Positions 37,860 to 64,000 of a stretch of DNA of 64,000 nucleotides are shown piece after piece. Both the position numbers and the translations under genes were made by a program. The stretch is from contig OZ024742.1 of the NCBI GenBank assembly GCA_964016885.1, positions 25,544,001-25,608,000 on the forward strand, written 5' to 3'. Origin of the DNA: Eledone cirrhosa. Its lineage: Eukaryota. Numbering within the stretch: the first letter of the stretch is position 1; the number at the start of each line of letters is the position of its first letter. The notes beneath the pieces were generated by a model. That model was not told the DNA's origin, made no database searches, and saw nothing but the letters and a program-made list of their open reading frames with translations.

Positions 37860-38232
37860 TCGGCTGAGCGTCGGCCAATGTATTTTGCGGCATAGACTTA
37901 CGTTCAGATTTCAAATCCTGCCGATGTAGTCTTTGCTTTTCATCCTTCGGGGTCGATGAAATAAAGTGCCACTAATGCGCTGGGGTCAATATAATCGACT
38001 CTCCCCTCTCCAAAAATTGTTGGCTTTGTGCCTCAATCAGAAACCATGGATTGGCAGTATCGGTAGAGATTCGGACACCATGCTATGCAGCAAAGATTTA
38101 CGGCCCATTATGGTCTGAGTTCAAATCCCGTCGAGGTTAGCTTTGCCTTTCATCCTTACAGGGTCGATAAAATAATGTACCAGTAATACACTGAGATAAT
38201 TACTGGCATTATGCCAAAAGTAGAAACAATTA
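37860..38232 (+). mobile_element. Two tandem SINE copies
   Basis: A/B boxes and the body ttttcatcctt(ac)..ggtcgat.aaat. Confidence 0.85.
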
Positions 38233-38983
38233 TATTATAGCATAAATAGATTTACCAGAGAAATAGGCTATTTTAACATTGATATAAATGTGAAAGGATT
38301 TTGACGTTTAAATGCGATTGTTGAAAATCTCTGTCGCTCCTTCCAAGTCATTCTGGATTCTAAATAATTTCACATGATGTGATATCACACTTTGTGAACG
38401 CAACATGACGGCAAGAAAACATCTATTTTTCAGATTATCTTGGTGACCGTTGACAATGGAATCGTCATGGCAGAAGTTATTATTTTGTTCAGCTTTTTCT
38501 AAACGTTGTATATCTACATATACATGACAATTGCCAGCTTCCATTTGCCCCGACGGCACTAAGAGTTATACAAGTAGTGTGATAGAATTTTCTGGACCTT
38601 AAAATAAATCACATCGCCTAAAGTTACTGCCCTTATTGAACTTATAGTGTGTAGAGAGTTATTTGACCCACAATTCTGGAGTAGGCAGGAACATGCATGA
38701 TTGAGAATTATAGGCTCTGTTATTCTAACATGTAACTACTGTAATAATGTTGTTATATCTATTTAAAATTTTACATCCTTTCAAAAGGAGAGCTATACCG
38801 TATCAGTGTCAGATGCTGTAAAACTCGTGGTACTACATTCGTTCTTAATCTCTGTCTGTATATATATATGTATATATATATATATTTATATACGTCTCTC
38901 TCCCTCTCTACCCCCCTCCTCTCTCTCTCTCCCTCTCTATCTCTATTATATATATATATATATATGTGTGTGTGTTTGTTTAC

Positions 38984-40176: not shown

Positions 40177-43100
40177 TCTTTATTAACCACAAGGTTTTAC
40201 ATAAAGTAGACATTAAGGACAGTACAGGACAATACAGGACGGTACAAATGGGCATTTCTGCGTGTAAAAAAACAAAAAAACAGATGATGTAATAATAAAA
40301 CAATGAAAACATTCCCCAATAGGGGTGGGGGGGGGGAGACTTCTGAGGGCCATCATGGAGAAAGCCCATTAAAAAACCACAGTGACCCTGACCACCAGGG
40401 CAAGTGCCCTCTCGCAGTTTTCTACATTTAATTTACAGACACATACTCAGAGTAGGCCCATTCACTCGGGCCATTCTTGCCTCTCTCACATATCTTTCAA
40501 CAAAATGCTGGGAAGAGAGCACTTCCCTCTCTACTCTGATTTTCCTTTTCAAATGAAATTTGAAAATGTTAATCAGGGCATCACCGAAGAAGTAAGTGCT
40601 AGTCTTCAGCCCTTTCAAACGAGTCCACCATACTATATATTTCGCCATGGCCACAAGACAGATGAAAACTGCCTGCCCTTCCCGGCTAAAGGAAGAGGGC
40701 GGCGAAATCCTCACGATGGACTCAGCTGATAGCTGGATCCGTCCTACACGCGACAGCAAGTGTTCGACATAAACCCACAAGTCAGCAATTTTCGGACATT
40801 GGACGAGTGCGTGCAGGACGGTTCGTCGCCCTGCGCGCATCTCGGACATGCCTGGTGATGGCACCTCCATGCCTGTAGCGTTTATCCCAAACTGGCAAAG
40901 TTCCTCGGTAGCACTGCCAGGCCAGGGATTTCTGGAAGTTGTCCATAGGCCCCGGCCCGAAAGTTCTTCCGAAGAGATTGGCTAGTTGATTTTCGTCGAC
41001 GCCTGGAGTTTCCCCAAGTACGTCGTCGCTCTTCCCCTCCACTAATCCTCTATAGAACGCTGAGGTGGAGTTTCCACCGATCACATTGCCCGATTGGTCG
41101 AGGGCTGTGAGCGCCTGAAGACATTCCAGTCTCCAAGCGCTCCCTCTCGGTCTTCGCTTGACCCAGGACTGCAGCACCGTCAAGGAGACGAGCTGGGGAA
41201 AGACGCGTCTAGCAAACGGCGACCACACCTGATCACCGCCGAGGAAGAGGTGGAGATGTCGTAGCATGAGCGCGGGTCTTCGCATCATCAGTCACAGCAT
41301 GCCCAGCCCCGCACGTAGCAGGTGTTGACAGCAGATGGATCGCCTGACCATCGGAGCGCATCCCTTCCACAAAAAGCGAAAGAGCAAACGCTCCAGCGCA
41401 GTCAGGATACGCTTAGGACAAGGTACAACGGTCAGGCGGTAGTAGATGACGGACGCGATGTACGCGTTAGCCACCTACGCTCAACCTTTGAGGGATAGCT
41501 TCCTCTCCGCCCAGCGAAGTGTCGCTGAAAAGCTTCACATATTTTCCCGGGATCAAGTAGCATGCGCCCGTCGTGGTCCACCAAAGACCGGATCGTGGCT
41601 TTGTTGCCACGACGTGCCTCCGCCACTCGGGCCCATTGAACGGCTTTAGTCCCCTCGTGTCTGAGAGCACGCACCCTAGCTCTGACAACGCAGCCTTCGT
41701 GCTTTGCTTTGAAGAATTGGTCAATGGCCAATTTCGCCGCAAGTACGTCGGTCGTGATGCCTTTGCTAAGGGCCTCGTCTAATTTTCTAACTACTTCTCC
41801 CTCTGCTCTATTTTTCTCTATAGCTAAAGCTTTACTAAACCTAATGGACTCTATTCTAATCGCTCTTTTCAGAGCAAACTACCACTTGTTGTTGACGATG
41901 GCCCCCGTCAACGCTTAACTAGTTCGCTAATCCGGTCTCTGTAGGTCTTGCGCGCTGGTAAGGACGCGTTTAGCTTCCAGTAGCCGGGTCCTCGTCTATG
42001 AAGCCTATCTAAGTAAAGCACACAGATCACGAATTTGTGGTCCGCGTAGCTGACTATCCTGAATTGTGGACAGCTTATGCTAGACCTATCTATTTCCCTA
42101 CAAAATACTCTATCTAGATATGATCTGGATGACCCGATACGATTTGTCCAAGTCCACATTGACACATTCGGGAAATCCAATCGGTACCTGTTAGACAGTT
42201 CAAAACGCCTGAGCAGGTTGGTGAGGCTCTTGCACTATCCTCTCCTATCCGCTAATCCCACACAGTCACAGCGTGCATCTAAGATCCCGTTCCAGTCGCC
42301 CACTAACACTAAAGAGCGGGACGTTCCTAGAGAGGTCGGAAGAAATCAGGACGCCGGAAGAAATCAGGCCGCCTTGCTCCTGTCGGGGCATAGACGGCCA
42401 CTAGCATGAAAGCTTGCCCTTCTCCGCTGGTCACGTCCAGCACCACCAACTTACCTTCTGGGTCCAGGAAGATGGCCCGTATGGCGAGATCCAAACCTCT
42501 CCGAAAAACACAGCAACTCGTCCCCCGATCCAGGACGGCTGGGTGATGCGTACACATCGTAGCCGCCGAAGATCGGTGCGAAGGCCCGTGCTTCGGAGAT
42601 TCTGGTCTGGCTGATGGCCACTACATCTATGTTTAGCAACCTGAGGTCGTTGAGCAGGTGGCCCTGCTTCCATGACGACCCCAAGCCACGCGCATTTATG
42701 CTTCCTATTCTGAGTGAGGTCATGTTGAAATGGAGTGGAAAAGATGGGAAAGACCACTTACCTTACTTCTCGTAGAGGAAGGTTGGTTTCTCCATCCTTT
42801 TCACTGCTTGTGGCCTCCTCCGGAAGGATATCCTTATAAATCCTCTTGGAGAATGCTTGTCGGAAGTCTCCGATGTCTTTGGTGAATTTTTGTTTTAGTG
42901 TCGTGTACGTTTTCTGTGTGATGCGTGTGATTTGTATGTGTGGAGGTGGTGTGAACATTTGGGTTGTTGTGTAGTCTTTTTCTGTGATGCTGGTGTTGTG
43001 TTGGATGTAGTGTAATAATTGGTTGTTGTTCAAATTTAATGCTGTATAGTGTGTATCGTTTTGGTTGTTTTGTTTTGTTTGCGTTTGTTGTGGGTTTGTA

Positions 43101-44273: not shown

Positions 44274-44277
<4 letters not shown>

Positions 44278-46878
44278 TAAAAATTGGTAAGTCAACAATA
44301 ACTGCTAAATCAATACCACCCAAGGAGGAAGTGCAAGAATTCTGGGAAAAGATCTGGGCCGAAGAAAAAGTTCATAACATACATGCCCCATGGATAGACA
44401 GACAAATGAAAGAAACAGCTCACCTTGAAGAACAAACATGGGAAAATATAACAGTTGAACAGCTGCGCTTGGCTCTAAGAAAAACCAGCAAATGGAAATC
44501 CCCAGGAAAAGACAAAATACAAAACTTTTGGATAAATGCCTTCACAGAGTCTCATGAGCTATTAGCCCAACTTTACAATGAAATAGTTAAGGAGCCAGAA
44601 AAGATACCATCATGGCTAGTTAACGGCATTACATTCCTGCTACCGAAGAATGATGAGACAAACAATCCCCAAAATTACAGACCGATAACCTGCTTGACCA
44701 CAATGTATAACATTTTAACATCAGTCCTAACTGAATACACATATGACCACCTGATAACAAATGACCTATTTCCCATTGAGCAGAAAGGGTGTAAACGAGG
44801 CTCATATGGCTGTAAGGATCAGCTTCTGGTTAACAAAATGATACTGGAAGATTGTCATAATAGACACAAAAATCTATCGATTGCTTGGATAGATTATAAA
44901 AAAGCATTCGATAGTTTGCCACACAGTTGGATTGAAAAATGTTTAGAGATTTTCAAAATATCCCCCGTTGTCAGGAGGTTTTTGTCATTCAGTATGAAGA
45001 CATGGAAAACGACACTCCTTTTGAATAGTGAAACAAAATCACTGGAAGCTGGAGAAGTTAACATTAATTGTGGAATTTTTCAGGGTGACTCTTTATCACC
45101 GCTTTTATTCTGCATCGCACTTATACCATTAAGTAAAATGCTCAATGAAACAAAGCATGGATATAGAGTCTATGACAAAAGCATTAATCACCTGTTCTAC
45201 ATGGATGACCTGAAACTATTTGCAAAAAATGATGAACAATTGCAAGGGCTATTGTCCACTGTGAAGCAGTTCAGTGATGACATTAAAATGGAGTTTGGAC
45301 TGTATAAATACGCCAAAGCAACGTTCACCAGAGGAAAGCTGCTGAAGAGTTCAGACATTAATCTTGATCGGGGGAACGTGATAAGAGAGCTTGATCAAGA
45401 AAAAACTTACAAATATCTAGGTGTTGGTGAAGGAGACGGAATCAAGCACTCGACAATGAGGGAAAGGATAAGGAAGGAATGTTACCGCAGAGTCAGAGCA
45501 ATCTTAAGAACGGAATTGAATGCAAGGAATAGGATCGATGCCATAAACACGCTTGCCATACCAGTAGTAACCTACAGTTACAATGTCATCAACTGGTCAA
45601 GCACAGAGATCCGTAGGCTCGATACAAAAATCCGAAAATTCTTAACCATGCACAGAATGCATCACCCTAAGGCAGACATAGATAGAATATATCTCCCTAG
45701 GAAAGAAGGAGGACGTGGGTTAATCCAGTTAGACATTGCGTTGAAAACTGCAACAATTGGATTATCCACATATCTAAGGGAATCATATGATTGGATGATC
45801 AAACTCGTTTTGAAACACGAAAGCACCAAAAGATCATATTCCATTACAAAAGATACAGTAATGGACTACAAATTTCAGAAGTCCCATTTACTGCTGAAAT
45901 GGAAAACACAGAAAAAGCAAAGCAGGTAAAAGTAACTGCAAAGAAAGAACTGCTACAGAAACTGGCTAAGAAATGGCAAGAAAAGCCTCTGTATGGAAAA
46001 TACCCAGAGCGAGCTAATAATCCTGATGTTGACAAAACTTTAACCCATCAGTGGTTGGCATCCTCTGGACTGAAATCGGAGACTGAAGGACTGATTATAT
46101 CGGCACAAGATCAGTGTCTGCCAACAAAAAATTACCAAGCCAACATAATAAAAAATGGGTGCAGCCCATTATGCCGTGTATGCAAAAAACAACCAGAGAC
46201 CATTGACCATATAATTTCAATGTGCAGTCCTATAGCTCCAACCGAATACCTAAACAGGCATGACAGAGCTGCACAATACATACATTGGATAATGTGTAAG
46301 CATTTTGACCTGCCCCATCAAAAGAATTGGTGGGAGCATCAACCACCTCCCATACTTGAAAAAGATCACATCTCAATCTTGTGGAACTTTAGCATCCAAA
46401 CAGACCGAAACATAGATGCAAATAGACCTGATATAATATTGAAGGACTTTCAAAGGAGGGTATGCCTGCTAATTGATATGTCTGTTCCAATAGACAAGAA
46501 TGTATCTATAAAAACATTTGAAAAATTGAGCAAGTATAAGGACCTGGAGATAGAAATTGGAAAAATGTGGAAATTGAGAACTAAAACAATACCAGTGGTT
46601 GTAGGCGCTCTGGGAATGATACCTAAGGGGTCTAACGACTACTTATCGCAAATCCCAGGAAACCCGCGTATAGGAGAAATACAAAAGATAGTACTAATGG
46701 GAACTGCCCATATACTAAGGAAGATCCTGTCAATATTAGTACATCACAAGTCTAAACACTAAGGATGCATGTGTGAATATGTATGTTCTTTCTTGAACAT
46801 GGCGGACCTTGTTGTCTCTTGAGGTCACTGGTTGTGACTTGGTGATAACTCGTATAAACATAAAGCAAGATAAATGCA
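44274..46878 (+). mobile_element. R4/Dong-like LINE (RT + CCHC + restriction-like endonuclease), 5'-truncated, one frameshift near 45856, inserted in (TAA)n
   Basis: KSPGKD, NYRPITCL, EQKGC, WIDYKKAFDS, GIFQGDSLSPLLF, FYMDDLKL, YKYLG, GGRGL; CRVC..PETIDHIISMC, RHD, RPDII, KY.DL; (TAA)n at 44224-44273 and 46879-46915. Confidence 0.95.
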
Positions 46879-47489: not shown

Positions 47490-50420
47490 ACCTCTAAACT
47501 CTCTCAAAATGTTTAGTTTAAACGCTGTCAAATCTAGTACCTAGTGCGCCTATGACAATCGGGACCACTTTGACTTCATGGCAGTTACAAAGCTTTTTAC
47601 CTCCCACTTTATGTCCTGGTATCGGTTAATTTTCTCCCTCTCCTTCTCTTGCACTCTCGCGTCGTATGGGCAGGCCACATCCACAATCAGGCACGATCTT
47701 TTTTCCTTGTCCAAAACCACCAGGTCAGGTCTATTGTGTTCCAGCTACTTGTCCGTCTGTATCCTAAAATCCCACAGCACCTTCATCTGATCATTTTCTA
47801 TCACCGACTCTGGCTTATGCTCATACTACTTCTCAGAATGTGGTAAATTGTTTACTTTGCACAGGTGCCAGTGGATCACCCTGCCCATCACACATGTCTC
47901 CAGCCTTTATAGTGAGTCTTGGCTAGGTGTTTACACTCGGATAAAATGTGAGCCACAGTCTCCTCTCTCTCTCCACAGATCCTGCACAGTGGGCTAGCCT
48001 CCTCCTTGTAAATATGGTGTTTCAACCACTTCGTTTTGAGGGCCTGCTCTTGCGCAGCCATTAACATTCCTTCTGTAGCCTTTTTAAGGTCAGCTCTTTT
48101 CAACCATTTCCATGTCTGTGGATCTCTGAATTCAGTTTTCTCAAAGAAGGTACTATGAAGGGATTTTTCCTGAAGGCTGCTCTTTCTCCATGTTGTTATT
48201 TCCTCCCTGGACATCCCCTGGTCTATTGTCCTCTCCTTCAGTACAGTTCTGAGCATTGGCTGCTTACTATCAGTCACGTATTTGTGTAGGTTGTTTTTCT
48301 TCATCTGAACACAGTCCTCTATGGTGATAAGACCTCTTCCACCTTCAGATCTCCTTAAGATCGTCCATGAAGAGGAGGTGAATGATGGTAAGCTCTCCCT
48401 TTCCCAACTTGTATCCTGCTCTCACTTTTCGCAGTATAATGGTAAGGGGCATCAGGGCAAGGACAAACAACAGAGGGGACAGACTATCTCCCTGGAAGAT
48501 ACCTCTCTTGATCTTCACGCCTCCCAAGGATTCTCCAGCTGATGCTAACTCTGTTTCCCAGGACTTCATACTTTTGCCCAACAACTGTCTGATGTTATCT
48601 GCCACCTTTAAGATCTCTAGGCTTTTGGTGATCCAAGAATAAGGCACCATGTCAAATGCCTTTTTGTTGTCTATCCATCCCATGGCAAGACCAGTGTGTC
48701 TCCTCTTGCAATTCCTCATTACCATCTTATCAATAAGTAACTGGTCCTTTGTACCACGGGACTTCTTTCGGCATCCTTTCTGTTCGTCCGCTAACAAGTT
48801 GTTTGTGTGGAGGTGATGGTAGATTTCCTCAGACATAATGCTTGTCAACAGTTTCCACATTACGGACAGGCATCTGGTAGGTCTAGAGTTGGTAACATCA
48901 TTACCCTTGATTCGGTCCTTCATTACCAGAACTGTGGTACCTTTTGTCAACCACTCTGGTACCCCACCTGACATCAAGCAGTCATTGAACATGGTTGTCA
49001 GTTTCGGGTGGAGGAATGTTATATTTTTAATCCAATACCCCTGCACACCATCTGGTGATTTCCAGTTGGTTTATTTTTTTGGCCTGCCCCTTAAGAGTTT
49101 CAACTGTTATACTCAAGTCAGTTTGTTGGTGTGCCTGTTCACTAATCTCCTTCTGTACTGTCTCAATCCACACTGCCTGGTCATTATGTTTAACATCCTG
49201 CTCCCATATTCCTCCCCAGAATGTTTTAGTTTGTTCCGCCTCAGGGATCAAGTCGTTGCCTCTTTCTTTCCCCTCAAGCTGTCCAAACAGCATGTTCTGG
49301 TTGTTGTCAAACATGCGGTTCTGTCTATACTGACTGACTCTGATCTCGTATCGCCTAATTTGTGTACTCTTTGCTACAATGCGTTGCTTCAGTTCCTCTA
49401 TGATAATATTTAGCTTTTTCCTCCTAGTTTTGTACTTTATTTCCAGTCTATTTTTAGTGTCTATGTTTTTTAGTGTCCCATTCAGTAGGGACTCAAGCTT
49501 TCCAATGTCAGTTCTCATTTCCCTGATTTGACCACTCAGTCGTTTCTTCCACCAAGGCTCTGCTCTTTCTTGTTTGCTGTTTCCTCTCGCTTTTATACCA
49601 AGTAATTTCCTCACCGCATATGTTGTTGCTTTGAGGATGTTGTTGCACTGGTGAAGGCTCCTCGCCTCAAGGTATGGGATGACTTTGTTTACCTTAGCTG
49701 TTGTTTCTTTTAACTTTTTCCTGTCTACAAATCTTAGGTTCATAGGTTTCACACTATCATTGTTCAATTCATCTACCACTAAGTTTAGGATATCAACCAA
49801 ATCTTGTCCTAGCCCGTCAGCATTCATCTCCTCAATGGCCGTATCTTTGTTCCAGGTATTATTTATTTCAGCATTCAGATCATTGTCTGCTTCGGATGGT
49901 TCCTCCGTTCTCTCACCCTCTTCACCTTCATTTCCCACTGGTTCGTTTGCCTGGCATACTCCACTCTCCATTTCCAAGCTAATCTCTCTGCTCAGTTCCT
50001 CCAGTTCCAGCTCGCTTATCCACCCATTAGTTCTTATTACCCGAGCCTGCCCGGCCAATTTTTGTTCATCTAATTTAAATCGACCAATCTCGTTCCAGAT
50101 GTTATGCATCCGTTTCCTATAGCCTTTCTCCTTGGGGTTGCTCTTCAGGTAACATTGCATAACAGTTCTATTCAATTCTTTCGTCCAGTTTGTTCTGGTC
50201 CCTTTCCTTCTTCTTCTTCCTCCGGCACCAGCAGTATTTGGTTGACAGCCAGGTCCCTGCTGCTGAGCCAGGGAGCACCTGCTGGGTGAGAGTCTGTCAC
50301 ATGACATTCTAGTCTCCACTTCACCGTTATTCGAACTGTTTAGGTTCGACATTTAAACACTCTTATCGAGGATTGTTGAATGTATGGTTACATAACCACC
50401 GGTGATTTCATCACTCCCGG
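47490..50420 (-). mobile_element. Second R4/Dong-like LINE with its N-terminus retained, frameshifts and an internal deletion
   Basis: WTKELNRTVMQCY..GYRKRMH; EQKGCRKKSRGTKDQL, GIFQGDSLSPLLF, FMDDLK; AAQEQAL, CRICGEREETVAHILSEC. Confidence 0.92.
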
Positions 50421-51795: not shown

Positions 51796-54127
51796 TGCTG
51801 CGTCATATTAGAATATCAAAAGATTACTGGCTACCAAGAATCGAAACGAAAGTCTTAATAAATCTGAGAAAGATTCACTTGAAAAGTAAATCAACAGGTC
51901 TGTTCTAAATAAGCATCTGTATTTTGTCGTGGGAGAAAATATTCGCTTCAGTAGTGAGAGCCCCGGATTACTGACTACTACGAATGGAAACAAAAATCTT
52001 TATAAACATGAGAAAAGTTTCAGAGTGGGGAATTCTAAAGATGTATATTGTGAATACGACAAAATCTCAAAGGTAGAAATGATTCAATATTTATTTATTG
52101 AGATATATTTCTATTTGATGTCGCGATAAGACACAAACATTTTGAAATATTATTTGAATATTTCCTTGTATGTATATGTCTAAATTTACTTCGTTGTCGG
52201 TGTTGTTGGTGGTGGTGGTATCTTTATATTGATATAAACAGGAAGGGCAATTCCAAAAACGATCTCTGTGAGAGTCTACCTAAGGAAGAGCTAGCAGAGG
52301 ACGAGAAGCCAAGGTCACATTTTTACGACATAAACTGCATTCCCTTTAACTGGCCAAACATGAGGAACAATAGAATTGTATGGTGACAGAGTGTCAAGTG
52401 AATCCATCCAAGCAGTGTGACGTATTGATTGATTGATTGAAGAGCAATATATTGTTAACTATCTCGCGGATATGGTGAAAGTGGTTCTGTTGTGTGCGTT
52501 ATTTAAAGGACAAAACACAGGTACTCTCCGCTTTGATTAAGCCCTCATAGACGGTCTTTTTACTTTCACTTGAAAAGTAAATTTTGGGTATCTGAGAGTG
52601 GTGAGCATGATCGAACTGAACGTGTCTGTTCTGAGTAAGCCCATGAAATTTAGAGCAGGACAACTGAAGAAAACAATCTGTTGCCTCAGTAATGAAAGTG
52701 TCAGTGGCATTTTGTAAGGTTTTCCACGATTGGATTTGGAAAGTCTCCCCATTATTTCGGAATTTTCTTTGTTTGATTTTATTATTACTCGTTTTATTTT
52801 TTGCTTTGTTAACTCACATTTTCACGTTTTCAAGTAAACACACATTGAACCGTCTTATACTCTCCCTAATCCTTTTGTAAACCCTTGTGCTAAAAGTAGA
52901 AATCATAATTTCGGTTTGGATAAAGCAAGTATGTATATGCTTGTTAAAGTAAAATTATTTTTATGATGCATGTCTTTACCTCGTTGTATGATTATGCTTG
53001 CGTGTGTGTATGTTTGTGTCAGTGTGTTGCGTTTATTTGTATAAAGATGTGTGAGAGTACCTTTGAGACTATATGTATGTGTTCGATATATGTTTGGGAT
53101 TTTTTCTTTAACGTTTGTTTATCAACCTATAGTAACATCCTTACTACATTTTTCTGACACCTTCTCCAAAACTGGAACATCTAATACGAAGTTAATGTTA
53201 AACGAGTTCAGCAATTCCAGGAAATCTTTTGAAGTACAAAGAGAAAAATAATACTGAGTTACTCTTTGAAAACAGGCACTCTAAGACAATTACTTTAATG
53301 TCTTATACACAAAGAGTTATCTTCCTAAAGACTTTTTATTCAACATGTTGTTTAAAAGTTTAACAAGCTTCTCTATCATTCTTTCAGGAAGGAAATGTTA
53401 GAAGATAGAACAGCTAAAATTTAAAACAACAACAACAATATTCCTCTGATATTATACATTGTATTTCATCAGAAAAAAAAACAAAAAAAAATCAAAAATA
53501 CATTTCCTGACCTTATTTGATTTTTAAAAATCTACAAGACATTTCCTGTTATTTGAAAGTAAAAATAGAAAATTCATAAAGTGAGAAATGACTTGTAGTA
53601 CGTTAGAAAATAATGTTTCTAGGCAGGAAACTATTGTGTGATCCTCTTTTGTTTCAGTACAACTGCAAGCTGTCTCCAGTTATATAGCCGTGTTAACTCA
53701 TGTTTCCAGGAAGTATGTTCCTGTTGACTTGACACAATCTTAAATAAAGCTGTCGTGTTTCCACTCCTACTCAACAACTAATACAAAGAAGAACACGAAA
53801 AGTTAAAACTAAAACAAGGAATAGCAGAGAGAATAAGGCGACCGACAGATATAGAGGTGAAATAAAAATGAAATTCTCAAAGAAACTAGGATTCTTTAAA
53901 ATATATATATTTAGAGGAATAAAAAAACAAACTAAAAAATCACGTATACATAACAAAAAGGAAAGAGGTTATGAAGGAAAGAAGAATTTTGTAACAATTT
54001 AACTCTGAGTATAGTACACACGATTATCTATCTATCAATCTATCACTATCTCTTTTCTTTCACCTTCTTCCCTCTTTACTTCGAACACTCTCAATGCTTC
54101 TCCCTCACCTCTTTGTCTTTCTATATA

Positions 54128-54486
54128 CTAGCTGACGTATCCAGCTTCGCCCGGGTAAACAGATGATGAGAGAAGACAGGTAAAAGAGAAAATGACTGTA
54201 TTGGATGTTTGTCTGGTTACAGTATGAGGCGAATCCGTGGTGTCTGTGAGATACAAAAAAAGAGTAAAAAACCTCTTCCAGATATACCACAACTTCGTTG
54301 TACCGTTTGCGCATAGTATATGAACAATTCTAGGTGCTCCCACCTAGAATAGTGACCTCTAGGAGATGGTTCATCTTCTGCCTGACTGTAAAATGTGTAT
54401 CATTGCATAGATGTGGTTGTTCCACGTTTCTCAAAAGGATGATGGAAGTTCCAATCTTTTATATTATATGTAGATATAGATATAGA
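54128..54486 (-). mobile_element. Non-autonomous Helitron
   Basis: Minus strand starts A|TCTATAT.. and ends with the GC hairpin ccgggcgaagctgg followed by ..CAGCTAG|T; A/T insertion site, no TSD. Confidence 0.75.
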
Positions 54487-55030
54487 TAATTAATATAAAA
54501 GATGTCCGTCAATGTAAAAAAGGTCCTTATTTACTCCCTTCACAACTCTGTGATAAACTGCGTGGTGATTGTAGGATGCCGCACGTACACACACATACAC
54601 GCATGGAAACGCGCACAAGCACGCAAACTTACACTCGTACCCGTGCACTTACACACACGCACACACTCACATGTTCATAGTTTTTACTCTCTGTGGAAGG
54701 CTGCACGCATGCACACACACATAAACACACGCACACGTACATACACACGCACACATGTTAATAGTTATTGCTTTCCTTCCCCTCTTATTTCCACACACAT
54801 CACACACGCACATGTCTCTACACTAACACATATACATAGTGTATCCAAACCCAGCGTTCACTTTGCCTCCCCCACCCCCCTCACTTTCTTATTGGCATTA
54901 TGCATATTAATTTAAGTTTGGCGTTGTTGAGGTGGGCGGAGTCGTTTGAAACCTATGAACCAATGATAATCGAGAATTATGACACACGGAATACTGACAT
55001 TGTTGAAATTAATATATAGATATATATATA

Positions 55031-55145
55031 TAACAAAGAAATTGTGGTAAGGAACCAGGTGGACCATACGCACCGGAATATTCGATACTTAGGGAGGTAG
55101 AGTAGGTAATAGGAAAAGTCGTCGGGGTCCCGACTCTTTTCCTAT
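55031..55145 (-). mobile_element. Hairpin+tail mini-element, family C (37-bp hairpin)
   Basis: Hairpin 55109-55145; tail homologous to 62124-62201; (TA)n on both flanks. Confidence 0.8.
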
Positions 55146-55450
55146 ATATGTATATATATATATAAAGGATAACAAAATATCGTTATAGGTAATCTAGTTA
55201 GAGGTTGTGAATACTTCTTATGGATAGTTTTAGCGTACGGCGTTGTTTGACTAAACAAGAGGTTTACGTAGATGACGAGTTTATGATTTCACTAGTATTC
55301 CTATGTAAGTTTATCTTGGAGTAATAAAATTGAACAAGTGGAGAATAACATGGTCAACAGTACAAAAAAGGGATTTATTTACAGTCTAACAATTGTTTCA
55401 CTGATAAAGATGTCTAAAAATTGCTGAACACTAGAAGCAGTGCCACTCAA

Positions 55451-55686
55451 CGACTCTCGTCAATAAAATCTGGCAACTCAAAGATGCAAACATGGAATAT
55501 ATAATCAGCTGGACGAAGCTATCAAAAACCACGGCCTATCAAATTGGTACGTCCCATTGCAGTCTCTGTAATATGGAATTTTTCCAAATTTTAAATTACA
55601 ACAAAATTCTTCTTAGTAAAATTGAAAGAACTATATTTTGTCGACATAAATCGACAACCAAATTTAAGAACTTTAGACCAGCTTAA
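55451..55686 (+). pseudogene. PLE GIY-YIG domain C-terminal remnant
   Basis: TLVNKIWQLKDANMEYIISW...CSLCNMEFFQIL...FCRH aligns to PLE1 [21 protein letters not shown]...[12 protein letters not shown]...CCPH. Confidence 0.85.
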
Positions 55687-56579
55687 TTCCGTCTTATCTC
55701 ATCCATAACCGAGATTGTACCACTTGGATCTATTATGATATCACATTATTAGCATCATCATCATTATGATTATGATTATAATTATAATTGTCACCATGTA
55801 TCAAAGAACAATATCAAAACCTCTTATATTTACATTCTTATTTTATATATCTATATCTTTCACTCTCTATCTTTATATTTCTCTCCCTAATTTTATTTCA
55901 TCTCTGTCATTCTATTTTATCATATAATATAACTTAAAGCTAATTAATTAATTTATTTATTAAAATAACCAATACACACATAAATATATTTAATATTATC
56001 ATATTTTTACCTTCATATCTCTCCATATATTCTAACAACTCTCAAAAACCACTCTCAATAATTTTAATATGTTTAAATATTTTTCGCAAATTTTTACTTC
56101 TCTTGCGTAGTTATTTTCTTTTTTCAATTTTCACATTTTATACCATTTTATATCACATTAGATGTAATTTATTTATTTATTTATTTATTTATCAATTTTT
56201 TATATATTTTTTATATAATTATTTTTAATTTTATTTACATTTATTCATATATTAACGTTTATTCATTTATTTTCCCCTCTATTCTTCTTTCTATCCTACG
56301 TTATTTTTACTTATGCTTGTCTCTCCTCCATCATCATTTTCTATATATTTTCTTCTCTATATATGTTTTTTCTCTATAATAATTTCTCCTTTATCTTCTT
56401 TTTTCTCTTTCTCTTTCTCTTTTTCTTTTTCCTTCTTTTTTTCTTTTTTCTTTCCTTTCTTTCTTTACTGTAACTATCTCCTTTTCTTCCTTCTTTTCTT
56501 TCTATATCTATATTATTTATATTACTATTGATGATGTAATTTGAATTTGTAAATTGGCCGGTTAGATATATTTTCAATA

Positions 56580-56691
56580 ACAGTTTCCGAAGATCTGATC
56601 GAGGTAACATCGTATTTAAAATTGAGTGGCACTGCTTCTAGTGTTCAGCAATTTTTAGACATCTTTATCAGTGAAACAATTGTTAGACTGT
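56580..56691 (+). ncRNA. Hammerhead-like motif with CCGAAGA core and ~80-nt stem II
   Basis: ACAGTTT-CCGAAGA-t ctgat...atcag t-GAAA-CAATTG-TT-AGACTGT. Confidence 0.65.
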
Positions 56692-57372
56692 AAATAAATC
56701 CCCTTTTTTGTACTGTTGACCATGTTAGTCACCACGTTTTCAATTTTATATATATATATAAAAATAGATGAAATATATGGAGAATAGAAATGGCTGTGTA
56801 GTTACTATTTAAGGTAACTTAAAATGCAGTGGGAATACGAAGAAAGCAAAATGAGGGGGGGGGGGGGGGCAGTTTTCCTCATCAGTTGTCTACTGGGGGT
56901 CTAGGATATTTCTACGCTTTAAAGACAAGATACCACTTCACCCCAGGGCGTCATTAAGTGGATAAGTTATTGGGAAAACGAAGGAAGGAGGGAAGGAAAG
57001 CAAAGGAGAAGAAAAGAGAAACAGTAACAAAACAGCGAAAAAAACACAAACCGAGTAATGTGCGACCAACTATAGGTAGGAAATCCAAGACCACACACAC
57101 ATATATACACACACACACACACACATCCCCCCCCCCCCACACATATATATATACAGTATGTCCACACATTACTAACATCCTACTTAGGAATTTCCGCAGA
57201 TACGAACAGTCTCACGATGAAAAAGTAATCGTTGCTTTGTTGTTTTATTCCGTAGTGGGTACGCTTTTGTGTATATAGTTTATATGAAACTTCATACGTG
57301 CAACATGTATGAGTGACGTTGGCGGTATTAAAAGTAGCCTCCCTCGTCAGGCGCATATATATATATATACAT

Positions 57373-57412
<40 letters not shown>

Positions 57413-57623
57413 AAAATGTATATTAGTTTCACGTTCAATATGGTAGGAAAGGTCTTAAAGTTTTGGACGTTACTCCTTCATGTGAAAATAGAATGAGAGA
57501 TTAAAGACGAAATATAAGTAGCGGGTGTAGGAACAAAAGAACACAAAACACTTTCTCAACGACAGGTCTCTTTATTTTGTCATCTTTACGAACGGCTATT
57601 GTGTAGGCAGTTCACAAGTGTTC

Positions 57624-57691
<68 letters not shown>

Positions 57692-57698
<7 letters not shown>

Positions 57699-57930
57699 TG
57701 TAAAGATTTTGCTTTCAATCCTCAGAATGAAAAAATCCTGTCTGTTTATTGAATTCAATAAACAGACCAGGATTTTTTCATTCTGAGGATTGAAAGCAAA
57801 ATCTTTTGCTTTAAAGAAACCACTGGTAAATGGAATAATTGCCTTACGTTGTTTATTACATAACTATTAAGTCTGTTACCTACATAGAGCACTCTTTTTT
57901 CCTGGACTTTTCCGACGGAATTACTTCATT
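57692..57930 (+). mobile_element. Family A fold-back mini-element in (TA)n
   Basis: Palindrome 57702-57806 centred on GAATTC (57751-57756); 57748-57862 is highly similar to the reverse complement of 1513-1623. Confidence 0.85.
57776..57835 (+). ncRNA. Type I hammerhead ribozyme (family A)
   Basis: TTTCATT-CTGAGGA-ttgaaagcaaaa tc ttttgctttaaa-GAAA-ccactgg-TA-AATGGAA. Confidence 0.87.
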
Positions 57931-57964
57931 TATATATATATATATATATACATATATATATTTA

Positions 57965-58008
<44 letters not shown>

Positions 58009-58186
58009 TATATTTATGTATGTGTGTGTATATATATATATATATATACAGAGAGAGAGAGGGAGAGAGAGGTAGAGAGGGAGAGAGAGGTAAAGAGGGA
58101 GAGAGAGAGTACGCTGAGATGCAACAAGCAGGGGAAACTTATGCTACTCCCATTAACCTCCTTTTATATGTATATGGGCGGTGGAT

Positions 58187-58339
58187 TGGCAGTATCGGTA
58201 GAGAGTCGGATGCCATGCTTTGACGCATAGAGTTACGGCCCTTGCCATTCTGAGTTCAAATCCCCCTACGGGGTCGATAAAATAAAGTACCAGTAATGCA
58301 CTGGCTATTTGCTGACCTTGTGCCAAATGTAGAAACAAT

Positions 58340-58341
<2 letters not shown>
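58187..58341 (+). mobile_element. SINE copy with an internal deletion
   Basis: TGGCAGTATCGGTAGAG, GAGTTCAAATCC, ggggtcgataaaataaagtaccagt. Confidence 0.88.
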
Positions 58342-58408
<67 letters not shown>

Positions 58409-58453
58409 CCAATGATATTAAATAAATGGAAACTATATTTATAAAAGCATATT

Positions 58454-58518
58454 TATTTTATTATATATATTTCAAAGGCAACCAAGACAATATTGGTATG
58501 CTTTCATCAGATAAAATA
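58454..58518 (-). ncRNA. Type I hammerhead ribozyme (family B)
   Basis: Minus: TATTTTAT-CTGATGA-aagcataccaa tattgtc ttggttgccttt-GAAA-TATATA-TA-ATAAAATA. Confidence 0.85.
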
Positions 58519-58600
58519 CAAAGTTTGTTTTATAAATAGAGACGTACCCATGAAAATCATACCTTATCGGTTGGAAATTCACTGGGTAGTAATATATATT

Positions 58601-58667
58601 GTATTTTATCTGATGAAAGCGTACCAATGGTCTCTTGGTTGCCCTTGAAATATATATAATAAAATAC
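58601..58667 (+). ncRNA. Type I hammerhead ribozyme (family B)
   Basis: GTATTTTAT-CTGATGA-aagcgtaccaa tggtctc ttggttgccctt-GAAA-TATATA-TA-ATAAAATAC: 9-bp stem I. Confidence 0.87.
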
Positions 58668-58798
58668 ATATGGTTTATAAATATAGTTTCCATTTATTTA
58701 ATATCATTGAATATTTACTCCAGTAACCGATGAGTGCTCTAAATCAGTTATAAACATTTATGTCTGTCGGACTTCCAACAAATTAAATACAACTTCTA

Positions 58799-58853
<55 letters not shown>

Positions 58854-58862
<9 letters not shown>

Positions 58863-59025
58863 TTTGGAACCCCAACAGCTGAGCTCCGGCATTTCAACAG
58901 CTAGATCCGAGCCCGGAGCTCAGCCGTTGGAGTCCCGAATATTTCATATTACCCACTCTAATACGCCAAGTATCGAGAACTCTGGTGAGTAATGGTCTAA
59001 CTGCTTTTTACAGCCTTTATTCTGA
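58854..59025 (+). mobile_element. Hairpin+tail mini-element, family C (96-bp hairpin)
   Basis: Hairpin 58854-58949; tail tacccactcta...caagtatcgag..ct.tggtg. Confidence 0.8.
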
Positions 59026-59336
59026 TATATATATAACTTTCAGGCCCTTGCAAGTGGATTTTGTTCGTTTCGGATTTACAGAAACCTAGCGGAGATATTG
59101 TATAATATCAATGCGATGATCCAGATCTGCCATATTTTTGCTGAGTCAGTTTTCTTTTCGTTGCTTTGGTCACCGCGGCTCGCTTATCGGTCGCTGTCTT
59201 CAATTTGTAAAGCTGTCTAAACGTAATGTTATAACTCTATGTTAAAATACCCTATTGAATGCTTAGCTGCACATCCCGACTACATTCGTTAGTTTAGCTG
59301 CAACCAGAGCTTTGATTATGCTGCACTTCCTTTTTG

Positions 59337-59398
<62 letters not shown>

Positions 59399-60206
59399 TA
59401 TTGAAGTTTGCTTGAAGCATTGTGGAATATATAAGGTAAATTTCTTTAAGTCGTTTGGAAGCCTCGACAATGCAGATGGGTAAATCTCCGGGTAACAAGA
59501 TCCGGTGGTGGAGAGAGAGATGTATTTATATATCTATACATATATATATTATATATATCTATATATATATATATTAGAAAGATCGAGTATCGAAAAATCG
59601 GCGCACGAGTTCACGATAAACAAAATTCGAAATGAGCGGCAGAGGGCTCAATAATTCAGATGAATCAGAGCTATAACTATCGTTAAAATACCGTCACATA
59701 TAGAACAAGTCTACAATCAACCATACGATAAAAAATCGATAATAGAAGATTCGGGACAAACAGATAAAAAATATCAATAAAACAATACATCAATAATTTA
59801 AATAAATGTAAAATCATACCCGGACCCGCTAGAAAGGTGTTAAATCTAGCTTCATGGGTTTCTGTAAATCCTTAGACTGTACTCTATCAGCTCACATATA
59901 AATATAAAAGCCTACTAGAGTAAGCGGAACGGAGTTTACTTTTTCAACGAGCTTTTTTCCTAGCGGAAAAGGGGCTAACTACGAGTGAAAAACGCACATG
60001 GCATTAGACAAGGGAGATAACCTCTATATCCGCGAAAACAATTCGAGGGAATGTGGAAATACACATATCGAATAAGAGTGCTCAATAGACATGTTAAAAT
60101 AAAACAAAAGCTATTCATCACTCAATAGAATCGACAAAAAATGAGCAATAAAATTAACTGGTGGATAGCTATGTCCAGAGCTAAAAATATTAGAAAGATC
60201 GATATA

Positions 60207-60261
<55 letters not shown>

Positions 60262-60323
60262 TATAACGAGCCAGATAATTAGATATCGCCTAGTATCGCC
60301 GTTTTCCACAGTCAATGATATGC

Positions 60324-60374
<51 letters not shown>

Positions 60375-60897
60375 CTATACGGCAATATTAGGCCTGGTAT
60401 TGTATATTCTATTTGGTCTGAGTGGTCGATCGATGAACATCATCATAATATTCGAATTTTATCTTTGAACCCAATATTGAATATTTTGGGTAAATTACGT
60501 ATAAACATACCTTTGTTATTTTATAAATATACCACAACTAGTATATTCATGTTTTTAACTTAGCTAAATGTATAAATATATATAGTTATACATACACAGT
60601 CAGAACACACCAATGCATATACGTATATGTCTATGTACACACACACACGCATACACACGCACACACACACATGTATATATATACATATAAGTATATATGC
60701 ATATAAACTTACAGGCATAGTTAAACACATACATAAATACATGCATGCTCACATAGATTCACGTCTACATACATTCACACCTATATACATATACATACAT
60801 ACATGCACACATTTATTGCTATACGCATATATGCATATTACATAACACATTCGCACATATGCACACATAGGTACATATACATAACATACACACATAA

Positions 60898-60946
<49 letters not shown>

Positions 60947-61060
60947 TAATTTAATATATCTACTAACATAAGCGCACAGATGTACGCTAATGCCAGCAAA
61001 TACACAGGTTATGTCATAGTACCTAGGTGGTTCAATGCAGGAGAATGCAGAACAATAATA

Positions 61061-61538
61061 TAAAAGACGTAAAATAAGAAAATTTCTTAAAAAAAAAAAA
61101 ATTAACTTACTTACTTAAATTTTCACTCCAACTAATTAGTTTCTGCAATGGGATAAAGACAGTTACGTAATGAACTGTTGAGAATTTCATTGCGTCATCA
61201 GGGAGGTCATTCTCAGCCGAGTCTCCAGGCGATGCGCGGACACTGGGGACTCATATAAAAATAATAATAATTCGGCAACTGGAACAGCTATCGAGGACTG
61301 GATTCCAGCCACTGAAAATTCTCACTGCCACTGATCATATGGCCGATTCTAAAGAATCAATCACGTGACACAGAGGCTAGTCAGTAGAATGGGACGGTAA
61401 GATGACAGACGCCTACTAACACCCCCCAAAAATTTAGAAGTGGTTTTTGCAGAAACTAATTAGTTGGAGTGAAAATTTAAGTAAGTTAATTTAAAAAAAA
61501 AAATTTTTTTTAAAGAAATATTCTTATTTTACGTCTTA
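61061..61538. mobile_element. Fold-back element with ~88-bp inverted arms and two different outward-facing HHR motifs
   Basis: 61061-61148 resembles the reverse complement of 61447-61538. Confidence 0.8.
61126..61205 (-). ncRNA. Type I hammerhead ribozyme
   Basis: Minus: CTCC-CTGATGA-c gcaatg...acagtt..aactgt...cattgc a-GAAA-CTAATTAG-TT-GGAG. Confidence 0.8.
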
Positions 61539-61579
61539 TATATATATATATATATGTATATGTATATATATATATTTAC

Positions 61580-61611
<32 letters not shown>

Positions 61612-61612
61612 T

Positions 61613-61652
<40 letters not shown>

Positions 61653-61663
61653 CATATGTATAT

Positions 61664-61743
<80 letters not shown>

Positions 61744-62006
61744 TTCACAAACTCCCGTAGGAGAGAAACAGATTTATATTTGTAGCATTCCATATTTTTT
61801 CAAGACATTGCAATTTACTTATTTACTCCCGTTATAATTATCATATAGATATTTACATAGCTCGAGGTTTTCGTTATTCTAAGAAAACCTCTCTTTATAT
61901 ATATGTGTGTGGGTGTGGGTGTGTACATGTATGTATATATGTATATATATGTATCTATACAAGTATGTATGTATATATATGTTTGTATATATATATATAT
62001 ATACAT

Positions 62007-62199
62007 ATAGGAACCAGTAAGACCCCGACAGCTGAGCTCAAGCCGCCTCGACGGCTAATTCAGGTCCAGAATTAGCCGTCGAAACGGCTTGAGCTCTGCC
62101 GTCTGGGTCTTACTGGTTCCTATTACCCACTCTACTACCTCAAGTATTGAGTACTTTGGTGCGTTATGGTCCACCTGGTTCCTTACCACATTTCCTTCG

Positions 62200-62202
<3 letters not shown>
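62007..62202 (+). mobile_element. Hairpin+tail mini-element, family C (117-bp hairpin)
   Basis: ataggaaccagtaagacc...gacggctaattc aggtcca gaattagccgtc...ggtcttactggttcctat, then tail 62124-62201. Confidence 0.85.
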
Positions 62203-62238
<36 letters not shown>

Positions 62239-62657
62239 TATATGTATATATGGTGGCTGCCAACTCGTTTTCGAGTACGGCCACTACTTTATATCCATGT
62301 AGGAGAACCCCTACCGATGCGCCAACGAGTGTGACTTTTTAGTCCAGCCAGCGACTTGAAAACTCTGGTACAAACACTACACTTGTGACAATTTTTCACA
62401 CATAGTGCTGTGCCCATGGTACCATGTGACGACAAGTGCAAAGAGATCTCCAGATATAAAGCAATGCCTGTGCCGTGAAGCTTTTATAGTGAGCAAAGGC
62501 ACTGCACAAAGCCAGTCCCACTCTCTTAACCAAGATGATATTTACCAAAAAGAAGAACAAGTCAACATCATTGGATACCATCAGGGTTGCAGGTGTTATA
62601 TCAGTTTTCCTTTTCCTAGAATTCTGCCTTGACAAAGGCTAAGGGGTCATCTCTCCC

Positions 62658-62696
<39 letters not shown>

Positions 62697-62775
62697 CGCA
62701 CATATTGCATTTCTTATAAATATATACGCACGAATACTCATACATACACGCACACACACACACACACACACACGA

Positions 62776-62814
<39 letters not shown>

Positions 62815-63031
62815 GATACGTGTAAGATTATGTGAGGATATACGTGCATCTATAATGCAAATAACATTATATAGCATATTAATGTAACATATATGGCAAT
62901 GCCATCCAGCCACCCGGACAGTTTTGCTTACCTTCACAAAATATCTATATATCTATATATATATATATATTATATAAATATATATATATATATATATACA
63001 CATGATTAGATATATGTATAAGTATAAACAC

Positions 63032-63213
63032 AATATTTGTTTCTAGTTTAGGCACAAGGCCAGCAATTATCCAGTGCATTACTGGTACTGTATTTTATCG
63101 ACCCCGTAAGGATGAAAGGCAAAGTCAACCTCGGCGGGATTTGAACTCAGATCGTAAAGGGACGTAACTATGCTGGAAAGCATGGCGTCCGAACATCTAC
63201 CGATACTGCCAAT
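63032..63213 (-). mobile_element. SINE copy
   Basis: Reverse complement of the family consensus. Confidence 0.9.
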
Positions 63214-63481
63214 CCACACATGCATATATGTGCGTACAACTGCATATTTATCTCTTCGCTATGTGTATAAATTTATATATATATATACACATACATAGTG
63301 ATATATTTATACGCTTCATATACTTGTTTGTATAACTAGGATTGTTCCAGTCACTTCCAATCCTCTAATTCATGTTACATTGTTAAAATTCCAGTGAAAC
63401 TCAACAAAAACTAACACTCTTTACTTTCTTTCAACTATTTTTCTTTTAATTATTCGTCTAATATATATATATATATATTGA

Positions 63482-63553
<72 letters not shown>

Positions 63554-63642
63554 TAATTATTTAACTAACACCGACAGAAAGACACATGTACACAAAAACA
63601 TACATTCACACACACATACACACACAACGCACGCACACACAC

Positions 63643-63859
<217 letters not shown>

Positions 63860-64000
63860 TGTTTGTTTCAATATCTCAATTACTTTTAATATTTAATCAA
63901 AAGCAACTTCGATTATGATCTCCTCTACTGGATTAATATCACATCATTGACATTTGTGTTTCGATTTTTCTTTAAATATTCTGAGCCTAACTTCTATTTC

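Follow-up and report, generated by a model that had tools for sequence, protein, structure and literature searches.

How can a short repeat keep one boundary fixed to the nucleotide while the hairpin behind that boundary varies in length? The question is raised by three short, non-coding repeats, here called family C, in a 64,000-nt stretch of Eledone cirrhosa DNA (assembly GCA_964016885.1, contig OZ024742.1, positions 25,544,001 to 25,608,000; this whole stretch is hereafter the window, and positions are counted from its first letter). We consider it likely that these repeats are very short, 5′-truncated insertions of a (TA)n-targeting, Hydra-type Penelope-like element (PLE), and that they have a twin-start origin. 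Their placement in the Hydra clade would rest on their layout and on a bulged hairpin motif.

The window consists of AT-rich DNA of animal type; masking assigns about 30% of it to microsatellites, 200 N are counted in it, and its repeats were found by self-BLAST with the microsatellites masked. The family C copies lie at 55031–55145 (minus strand; copy A), 58854–59025 (copy B) and 62007–62202 (copy C), each between (TA)n-type runs, just where a first-pass annotation made from the letters alone had put them, and their hairpins do span the 37, 96 and 117 nt it had given. All three hairpins close at the common point AT|TACC, with the last hairpin base at 55109 (minus), 58949 and 62123. The annotation’s fixed outer boundary with a variable centre was likewise borne out: the boundary is constant in three of three copies and sequencing reads end in (TA)n there. 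Beyond it lies a tail of 78, 76 and 79 nt (A, B and C) by the annotation’s limits, or of 76, 76 and 77 nt up to the TA run. The copy A tail occupies 55031–55108 (minus; pairwise alignment, TA-run limits), running from the boundary, or start site 1, to the tail end, or start site 2; that of copy B occupies 58950–59025 (plus) and that of copy C 62124–62202 (plus), ending in (TA)n at start site 2. In BLASTN searches of the 64-kb window with the tails, A matched C at 83.7% over 86 nt (E 6.5e-21), B matched C at 81.3% over 64 nt (E 1.4e-12) and A matched B at 75.4% over 65 nt (E 8.5e-7), a similarity exceeding chance in a window of this size; these searches scored no fourth family C copy, nor was a family C parent among the PLEs of the window.

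The arms of the hairpins are unequal. Copy A has an inverted arm of 28 nt (55118–55145, element sense on plus, ending in (TA)n at start site 1) against a direct arm of about 10 nt (55109–55118, minus; arm alignment), and its apparent inner stem falls within the inverted arm. In copy B, ~52–59 nt of inverted arm (58854–58912, element sense on minus, inner end approximate) stand against ~37 nt of direct arm (58913–58949, plus); the full length of the copy C direct arm, GAAA included, can be aligned to this inverted arm, which extends through that GAAA and a helix-III-like palindrome, with CpG decay. Copy C alone is near-symmetric, its arms of ~57 nt (62007–62063, element sense on minus, ending in (TA)n at start site 1, inner end approximate) and 60 nt (62064–62123, plus; in other copies family sequence runs on upstream of 62064) differing at 8 of 60 positions. 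An inverted, 5′-truncated copy adjoins a direct copy in all three cases: the family C hairpins are two separate truncated copies, not simple fold-backs. The two arms of copy B share a minority variant, found at 62120 in 312 of 3,565 and 425 of 10,971 reads, which makes one donor for both arms likely.

Sequence from other samples bears on both ends. Part of the stretch is contained in 14 of 24 listed runs, none of them an RNA run; six of the 14, with fewer than five words or a small share, were left out, and four of the 24 runs were aligned, the sole reference being copy C from its direct arm to its tail (62058–62200, likeness 80). Run X1 yielded 15,086 contigs, X4 37, X8 2 and X22 21,940 raw reads; summed contig depth was excluded as a measure of copy number. 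Among the best-supported matches listed, to which all counts of ends and joints given here refer, (TA)n read ends are confined to two places, one at the boundary and one at the tail end. Loose TA follows 62123 in 3,329 X22 reads, 89 X1 contigs and one X4 contig, and follows 62190/62197 in 1,342 + 1,251 X22 reads and 91 + 79 X1 contigs. Strand is switched at 12 of the 13 joints in reads, the thirteenth being tandem-like, and in five of these 12 the direct copy starts inside the tail (62127, 62134, 62145, 62153 and 62160) with an inverted arm that reaches 62064–62073, an arrangement that a single fold-back cannot produce.

A single cDNA made by the same PLE enzyme might nonetheless be imagined to start at the tail end, stop, fold back, and be extended until it is cut or re-joined at the boundary. 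Such a course would suit the near-symmetry of copy C, the private variants common to both arms of a copy and the local palindromes of the region, and part of the asymmetry could also stem from deletions that hit the hairpin centre afterwards. Besides the joints that begin in the tail, however, it cannot account for inverted arms extending deeper into the element than their direct counterparts, as in copies A and B, and site-1 ends also occur on direct copies (at 56746 and in relatives L020 and L022). We regard it as improbable.

An assembly artefact could be suspected in repeat-rich, draft-like sequence with an N gap, but the arms of copy C are not mirrored reads, given their eight differences, and the same ends and strand switches occur in raw reads of another sample. 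A microRNA-like hairpin gene is not indicated either, Rfam giving no match. Rfam returned no match at gathering score anywhere in the window, a blank that says little since the full hammerheads present there were missed too; no tRNA was found in 54000–64000. An artefact or a hairpin gene is very improbable.

The annotation had also favoured a retroelement over a DNA transposon, and this view stands: whole-unit terminal inverted repeats are absent, with 8, 3 and 5 matches in 20 positions. Miniature inverted-repeat transposable elements (MITEs) or fold-back DNA transposons inserting at TA would be short, non-coding, hairpin-forming and TA-flanked, as family C is, and a target-site duplication is not discernible inside (TA)n. 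Yet the inverted part is one-sided and variable, the reads show two alternative 3′ ends, and the PLE motif and half a hammerhead are present; a MITE is accordingly very improbable.

Three observations from the same alignments stand apart. The 7,080 molecule ends at 62070 in X22 were rejected as biology: the site is AATT, the library is a restriction-site-associated (RAD) one and the pile-up looks restriction-cut, an origin that, like the identity of the enzyme, we infer. A joint of 62123 to 62200 on opposite strands (20 X22 reads, two starts) places a site-1 end tail to tail against a site-2 end and may be a nested insertion or an end-joined intermediate. In the inverted arm of copy C, read in element sense, GAGGC replaces the GAAAC of the direct arm, and a comparable run of A-to-G differences stands at this position in the inverted arm of one X1 contig; that a double-stranded template underwent A-to-I editing is a weak reading of these differences, since the frequent read variants list no A>G change.

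What, then, marks the two ends? Five nucleotides past the boundary, all three copies begin a bulged hairpin of the form RCUC-stem-UH-GAGY-ACU. It is intact in copy C (62129–62155, plus: ACTC-TACT-loop-AGTA-TT-GAGT-ACT), which matches a strict structural descriptor, and decayed in copy A (55077–55103, minus: ACTC-TACC-loop-AGTA-TC-GAAT-ATT) and copy B (58955–58981, plus: ACTC-TAAT-loop-AGTA-TC-GAGA-ACT), which match a loose pattern only. The strict descriptor has two matches in the window, at 62129 and at 23589, where the tail of an ORF-bearing Hydra-type PLE starts (ORF, open reading frame), against a mean of 0.34 and a maximum of 4 in 200 shuffles. By direct alignment, RCTC or GTTC starts −1 to +5 nt from the boundary in eight of nine window elements, the element at 57695 being unaligned; an automatic junction scan of the window found the motif at two of seven resolved junctions and missed the family C junctions.

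The motif recurs in relatives of the Hydra-type PLEs of the window. Across 77 relative loci, the pattern RCTC-N4-30-GAGYRCT has 123 sense and 10 antisense matches (shuffle mean 7.2, maximum 15) and is present in 60 of the loci. It lies downstream of 24 of 26 distinct hammerheads having at least 100 nt of downstream sequence available, 23 times at a distance of 33–56 nt; two motifs 55–79 nt apart follow 13 of the 26. Where the position of the longest ORF was checked, in 11 loci, its start lies downstream of motif copies. Among 79 non-redundant motifs read in the register of a 2-nt bulge, the non-fixed positions form Watson–Crick pairs in 73/79, 49/75, 31/47 and 20/37 cases (shuffle means 41.5, 20.1, 12.5 and 9.7; maxima 56, 35, 24 and 20); in registers 0, 1 and 3, pairing is within or below the shuffle range. 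The pairs were counted by register, and no covariance model was built, because a MAFFT alignment of 72 of the 79 motif regions misplaced the 5′ strand. The family C motif has A-U where most relatives have G-C. Energy folding chooses the motif fold for relative L066 and for 23589 (z −1.9). The family C motif is covered by a single BLAST match, to L066 (81% over 31 nt; at E 0.3 not significant in itself); in its hammerhead region, L066 is identical in sequence to the Penelope-1_NV row in the supplement of Craig et al. (2021; PMC8557442).

Junctions with (TA)n point the same way. Ten of 73 have a read-through template, and seven of the ten lie 6–11 nt before a motif; zero to four letters are shared at the junctions with a UA-rich patch 5′ of the motif (TAT in family C). 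Of eight ends that can be followed from a hammerhead to (TA)n, two lie 32–35 nt past the cut and hold no motif and six lie 92–112 nt past it and hold exactly one; none contains two. Inspection of the Craig et al. supplement by eye places the start of the Hydra-1_Ajap consensus 2 nt ahead of motif 1, with both motifs preceding the ATG; Hydra-2_Amil and Hydra-2_Ajap end in a one-motif tail (PMC8557442). Also in that supplement, the Chlamys-9_cRei consensus carries GCTC...GAGCACT near its 5′ end; unless this is coincidence, the motif may occur outside the Hydra clade too.

These features suggest the following course. The donor RNA would comprise a pseudo-long terminal repeat with a hammerhead, a 5′ untranslated region (UTR) with hairpin 1 and hairpin 2, and then the ORF, a layout seen in relatives and, for family C, as hairpin 1 only. 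A protein with reverse transcriptase (RT) and GIY-YIG endonuclease domains, probably a dimer, would bind the hairpins and nick both (TA)n strands; each nicked TA end would then anneal to a UA-rich spot a few nucleotides 5′ of a hairpin, in whose presumed presence reverse transcription would start once at site 1 (62123) and once at site 2 (~62200). The two cDNAs, primed from opposite (TA)n strands, would stop independently at variable points and presumably be joined head to head, giving (TA)n, inverted arm, direct arm, tail and (TA)n. The tail would then correspond to the stretch of RNA that separates the start sites, and the DNA hairpin would be no more than the part covered by both cDNAs. Directly observed in this scheme are the two fixed 3′ ends, the unequal arms, the (TA)n target, the motif position and the covariation. 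That tandem bulged hairpins in the 5′ UTR each load one RT-endonuclease subunit and so fix a start a few nucleotides upstream is a tentative proposal, which we would rate a little short of even. In L1 twin priming, two target-strand primers give direct and inverted truncated segments joined head to head. The L1 segments do not overlap and their second start is not fixed, whereas both starts of family C are fixed and its segments overlap, which is why its DNA folds as a hairpin. The annotation’s defined two-step priming is supported, as two defined priming points, marked by the two (TA)n ends in reads and paralleled by the starts of an anole PLE in vitro (Frangieh et al., 2024; PMC11167929).

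A further element of the annotation, that a 12-bp stem followed by GAAA in copy C resembles stem II of a hammerhead, holds only for the existence of the stem. It is not a natural stem II: its 5′ side is the inverted duplicate, as indicated by the depth in X22, which drops from ~12,000 at 62073–62077 to ~116 at 62058–62062, and by different loose letters upstream of 62064. In 30 such letters the family sequence is AT-rich, agrees at 0.45, with ~15 nt agreeing, and is unlike the copy C stem. The GAAA itself is probably hammerhead-derived, from the 3′ half, since a palindromic helix III and GUC come after it: in 62081–62103, GAAA leads into a helix III of 5 bp closed by a palindromic loop, then GUC, with the putative cut after 62103. 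Judged by the layout of relatives, a type I hammerhead is probably represented by its 3′ half in 62081–62108 (plus: GAAA, helix III, GUC and the 3′ strand of helix I; PMC4209133). GAAA, the palindromic helix III and GUC recur, decayed, in the inverted arm of copy B; short palindromic helices III are found in the hammerheads of relatives and have been described for PLE hammerheads (PMC4209133). Family C copies are cut short where the 5′ half would lie. Hammerhead cleavage was rejected as the cause of the boundary, because the boundary lies 20 nt beyond the putative cut (32–35 or 92–112 nt in relatives), and cleavage was dispensable for insertion in the anole PLE study (PMC11167929).

A competing account, which overlaps with the twin-start insertion of a truncated PLE and shares its insertion mechanism, makes family C a non-autonomous short element whose own 5′ end lies little upstream of 62064 and which a Hydra-type protein carries in trans, in the manner of a short interspersed element (SINE) or a retrozyme. 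The very many copies (15,086 X1 contigs aligned), the lack of a parent, the short reach of agreement in the AT-rich upstream letters and the description of non-autonomous PLE derivatives (bioRxiv 10.64898/2026.07.22.740005; PMC8557442) all speak for it. Heavy 5′ truncation, however, yields the same picture, the upstream letters are limited to 30 among the matches listed, and there is neither a tandem array nor a complete hammerhead of the kind retrozymes have; we hold it possible but rather unlikely. Non-LTR retrozymes (PMC7229834; bioRxiv 10.64898/2026.07.22.740005) resemble family C in being short, non-coding, hammerhead-related and thought to depend on PLEs. They consist of head-to-tail tandem units of 170–400 nt, each with a complete type I hammerhead, whereas family C is dispersed as inverted single units with half a hammerhead. 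In addition, family C may have become a very abundant minimal passenger, which would retain the hairpin signals while its ORF and one half of its ribozyme have gone.

Several results weigh against insertion of a truncated Hydra-type PLE by two hairpin-marked starts. No ORF-bearing family C parent was found among viral and metagenome contigs or the 77 relative loci. The hammerhead core CUGANGA is absent from all three copies and was not seen in the loose letters upstream of 62064. At likeness 80, repeats can generate joints, and the positions 62064 and 62117 mark edges of the alignment. The strict descriptor, which had been widened to ACTC/GAGT after the window had been seen, is not matched by copies A and B; energy folding misses the motif fold in all three copies (z 0.04, −0.60 and 1.11), and the covariation counts ignore relatedness among motifs. 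Hairpin 2 is not visible for family C, and the 30 letters behind 62190 in two X4 contigs hold no motif. The tails of other window elements, at 34–159 nt, vary more widely than the motif spacing of 55–79 nt, and the family C tail of 76–77 nt compares with a published PLE tail of 30–40 bp (PMC8557442). Finally, the anole PLE starts inside an AC-rich stem-loop, not 5′ of a motif of the family C type (PMC11167929).

Searches for a parent gave little else. Scans with the tail pattern returned nothing in viral contigs and nothing in metagenome contigs. The best BLASTN match of family C to the 77 relative loci (E 0.026) was antisense within ORF regions and was rejected as chance. Naiad is not favoured as parent, being TA-targeting but without canonical hammerheads (PMC8557442). 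Insertion into (TA)n is common to Hydra, Naiad and Neptune (PMC8557442) and is therefore not diagnostic of the Hydra clade.

An inverted 5′-truncated copy with a tail is a known PLE signature (PMC8557442); the architecture is thus already known and family C is a new family. With the Hydra-clade PLEs of Craig et al. (PMC8557442) it has in common the (TA)n target, the inverted 5′-truncated copy, the tail at one end and, near the 3′ end, a probable hammerhead remnant with a palindromic helix III. It differs in having no visible ORF, in lacking the hammerhead 5′ half and in its longer helix III (5 bp, 9-nt loop), and the hammerhead half of Hydra-1_Obim differs from its own (PMC8557442 supplement). 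Two family C strings were not found in that supplement, where line breaks may hide matches. Poseidon_Ac of Anolis carolinensis, in which both target strands are nicked and extended in vitro and a dimer is predicted (PMC11167929), is alike in its AT-rich target and in two internal RT starts that bound the tail; it belongs to another clade, its starts lie within the ORF a few tens of nucleotides apart, and a repeated conserved hairpin is not reported in the part of that source available.

Craig et al. named the origin of PLE inverted repeats and tails an open problem (PMC8557442), and the anole study gives two start sites in vitro, with no clade-wide specifying signal in the part available (PMC11167929). 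A covarying hairpin just 3′ of both ends is a testable candidate for the start signal, and it offers annotators a marker for ORF-less hairpin-plus-tail repeats, of which the window holds several families. The end-marking bulged hairpin is apparently an undescribed cis feature: it was not found described in a literature search that covered few subscription papers and was made without Repbase or Dfam, and Fig. S2C of PMC11167929, on RNA folding, may bear on it. If tandem hairpins do fix the starts as proposed, they would be the first defined cis signal for internal initiation by PLEs and a ruler for tail length; the process would amount to a programmed twin priming that copies one RNA region twice, and with a start signal of ~30 nt that is portable, a PLE protein could be made to write a chosen RNA into (TA)n sites.

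The Hydra-type neighbours provide the comparison. Four pieces of one PLE-type ORF lie in the window, at 3476–5173 (minus), 20703–21975 (plus), 55447–55668 (plus) and 12135–12410 (minus); Pfam gave no family for two of three Hydra-type pieces and a weak RVT_1 for one. The 5′-truncated ORF at 3476–5173 (566 aa) served as the query for relatives and gave 2,658 matches among 8,000 scored. It shows CxCX5C, CxxC and CxH itself, and a 30-row alignment of its relatives carries RWK, DKT, CxCX5C, CxxC and CxH; the published marks of the Hydra clade are RWK, DKT, a CxCX5C linker, CxxC, CxH, a C-terminal endonuclease, (TA)n insertion and hammerheads (PMC8557442). The ORF-bearing element at 20077–23666 (plus; RT and endonuclease region 20703–21975, frameshifted), of a different family from family C, reads (TA)n, inverted arm, ORF, direct arm with hammerhead, 81-nt tail and (TA)n, with a full hammerhead at 23482 ahead of its motif. 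An ORF-less hairpin-plus-tail relative of it lies at 58408–58800 (plus; hammerhead 58610, motif 58717, 83-nt tail). Adjoining copy A, a truncated element at 55165–56750 (plus) with the ORF fragment 55447–55668 has its tail on the inverted copy, from which it follows that neither site is reserved for one of the ends.

The window is dense with remnants of TA-targeting PLEs, several adjoining in shared (TA)n. A second hairpin-plus-tail family (57695–57930, 1508–1623 and 2939–3090) has a complete hammerhead with its core at 57783, and a copy related to it lies in the 3′ region of the ORF 3476–5173, its likely parent type. Further TA-flanked elements with hammerhead cores, inverted arms or both lie at 16033–16220, 60945–61536, 17608–17960, 59040–59334, 25949–26700 and ~8680–8800; the one at 60945 has GTTC/GAAC, a compensatory form of the motif. 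At 8345, just after a TA run at ~8260–8275, stands a GCTC...GAGCGCT motif with a paired upper stem, possibly another Hydra-type end. The 5′ end of a Hydra-type ORF fragment at 12135–12448 (minus) turns into a short inverted repeat (12384–12448), a hairpin within coding sequence, and in other hosts inverted or hairpin arrangements stand beside Hydra-type ORFs (L029, L037, L053 and L072). The window also holds ORF pieces of the long interspersed element (LINE) type at 33454–35903, 40433–42409, 44274–46762 and 47888–50352, three of which, when tested, gave Pfam RVT_1 above the curated cut-off. A dispersed, SINE-like repeat of ~180 nt occurs in many copies of up to 93% identity at 12455–14740, 15757–15938, 30131–30265, 37898–38240, 58184–58339 and 63032–63214.

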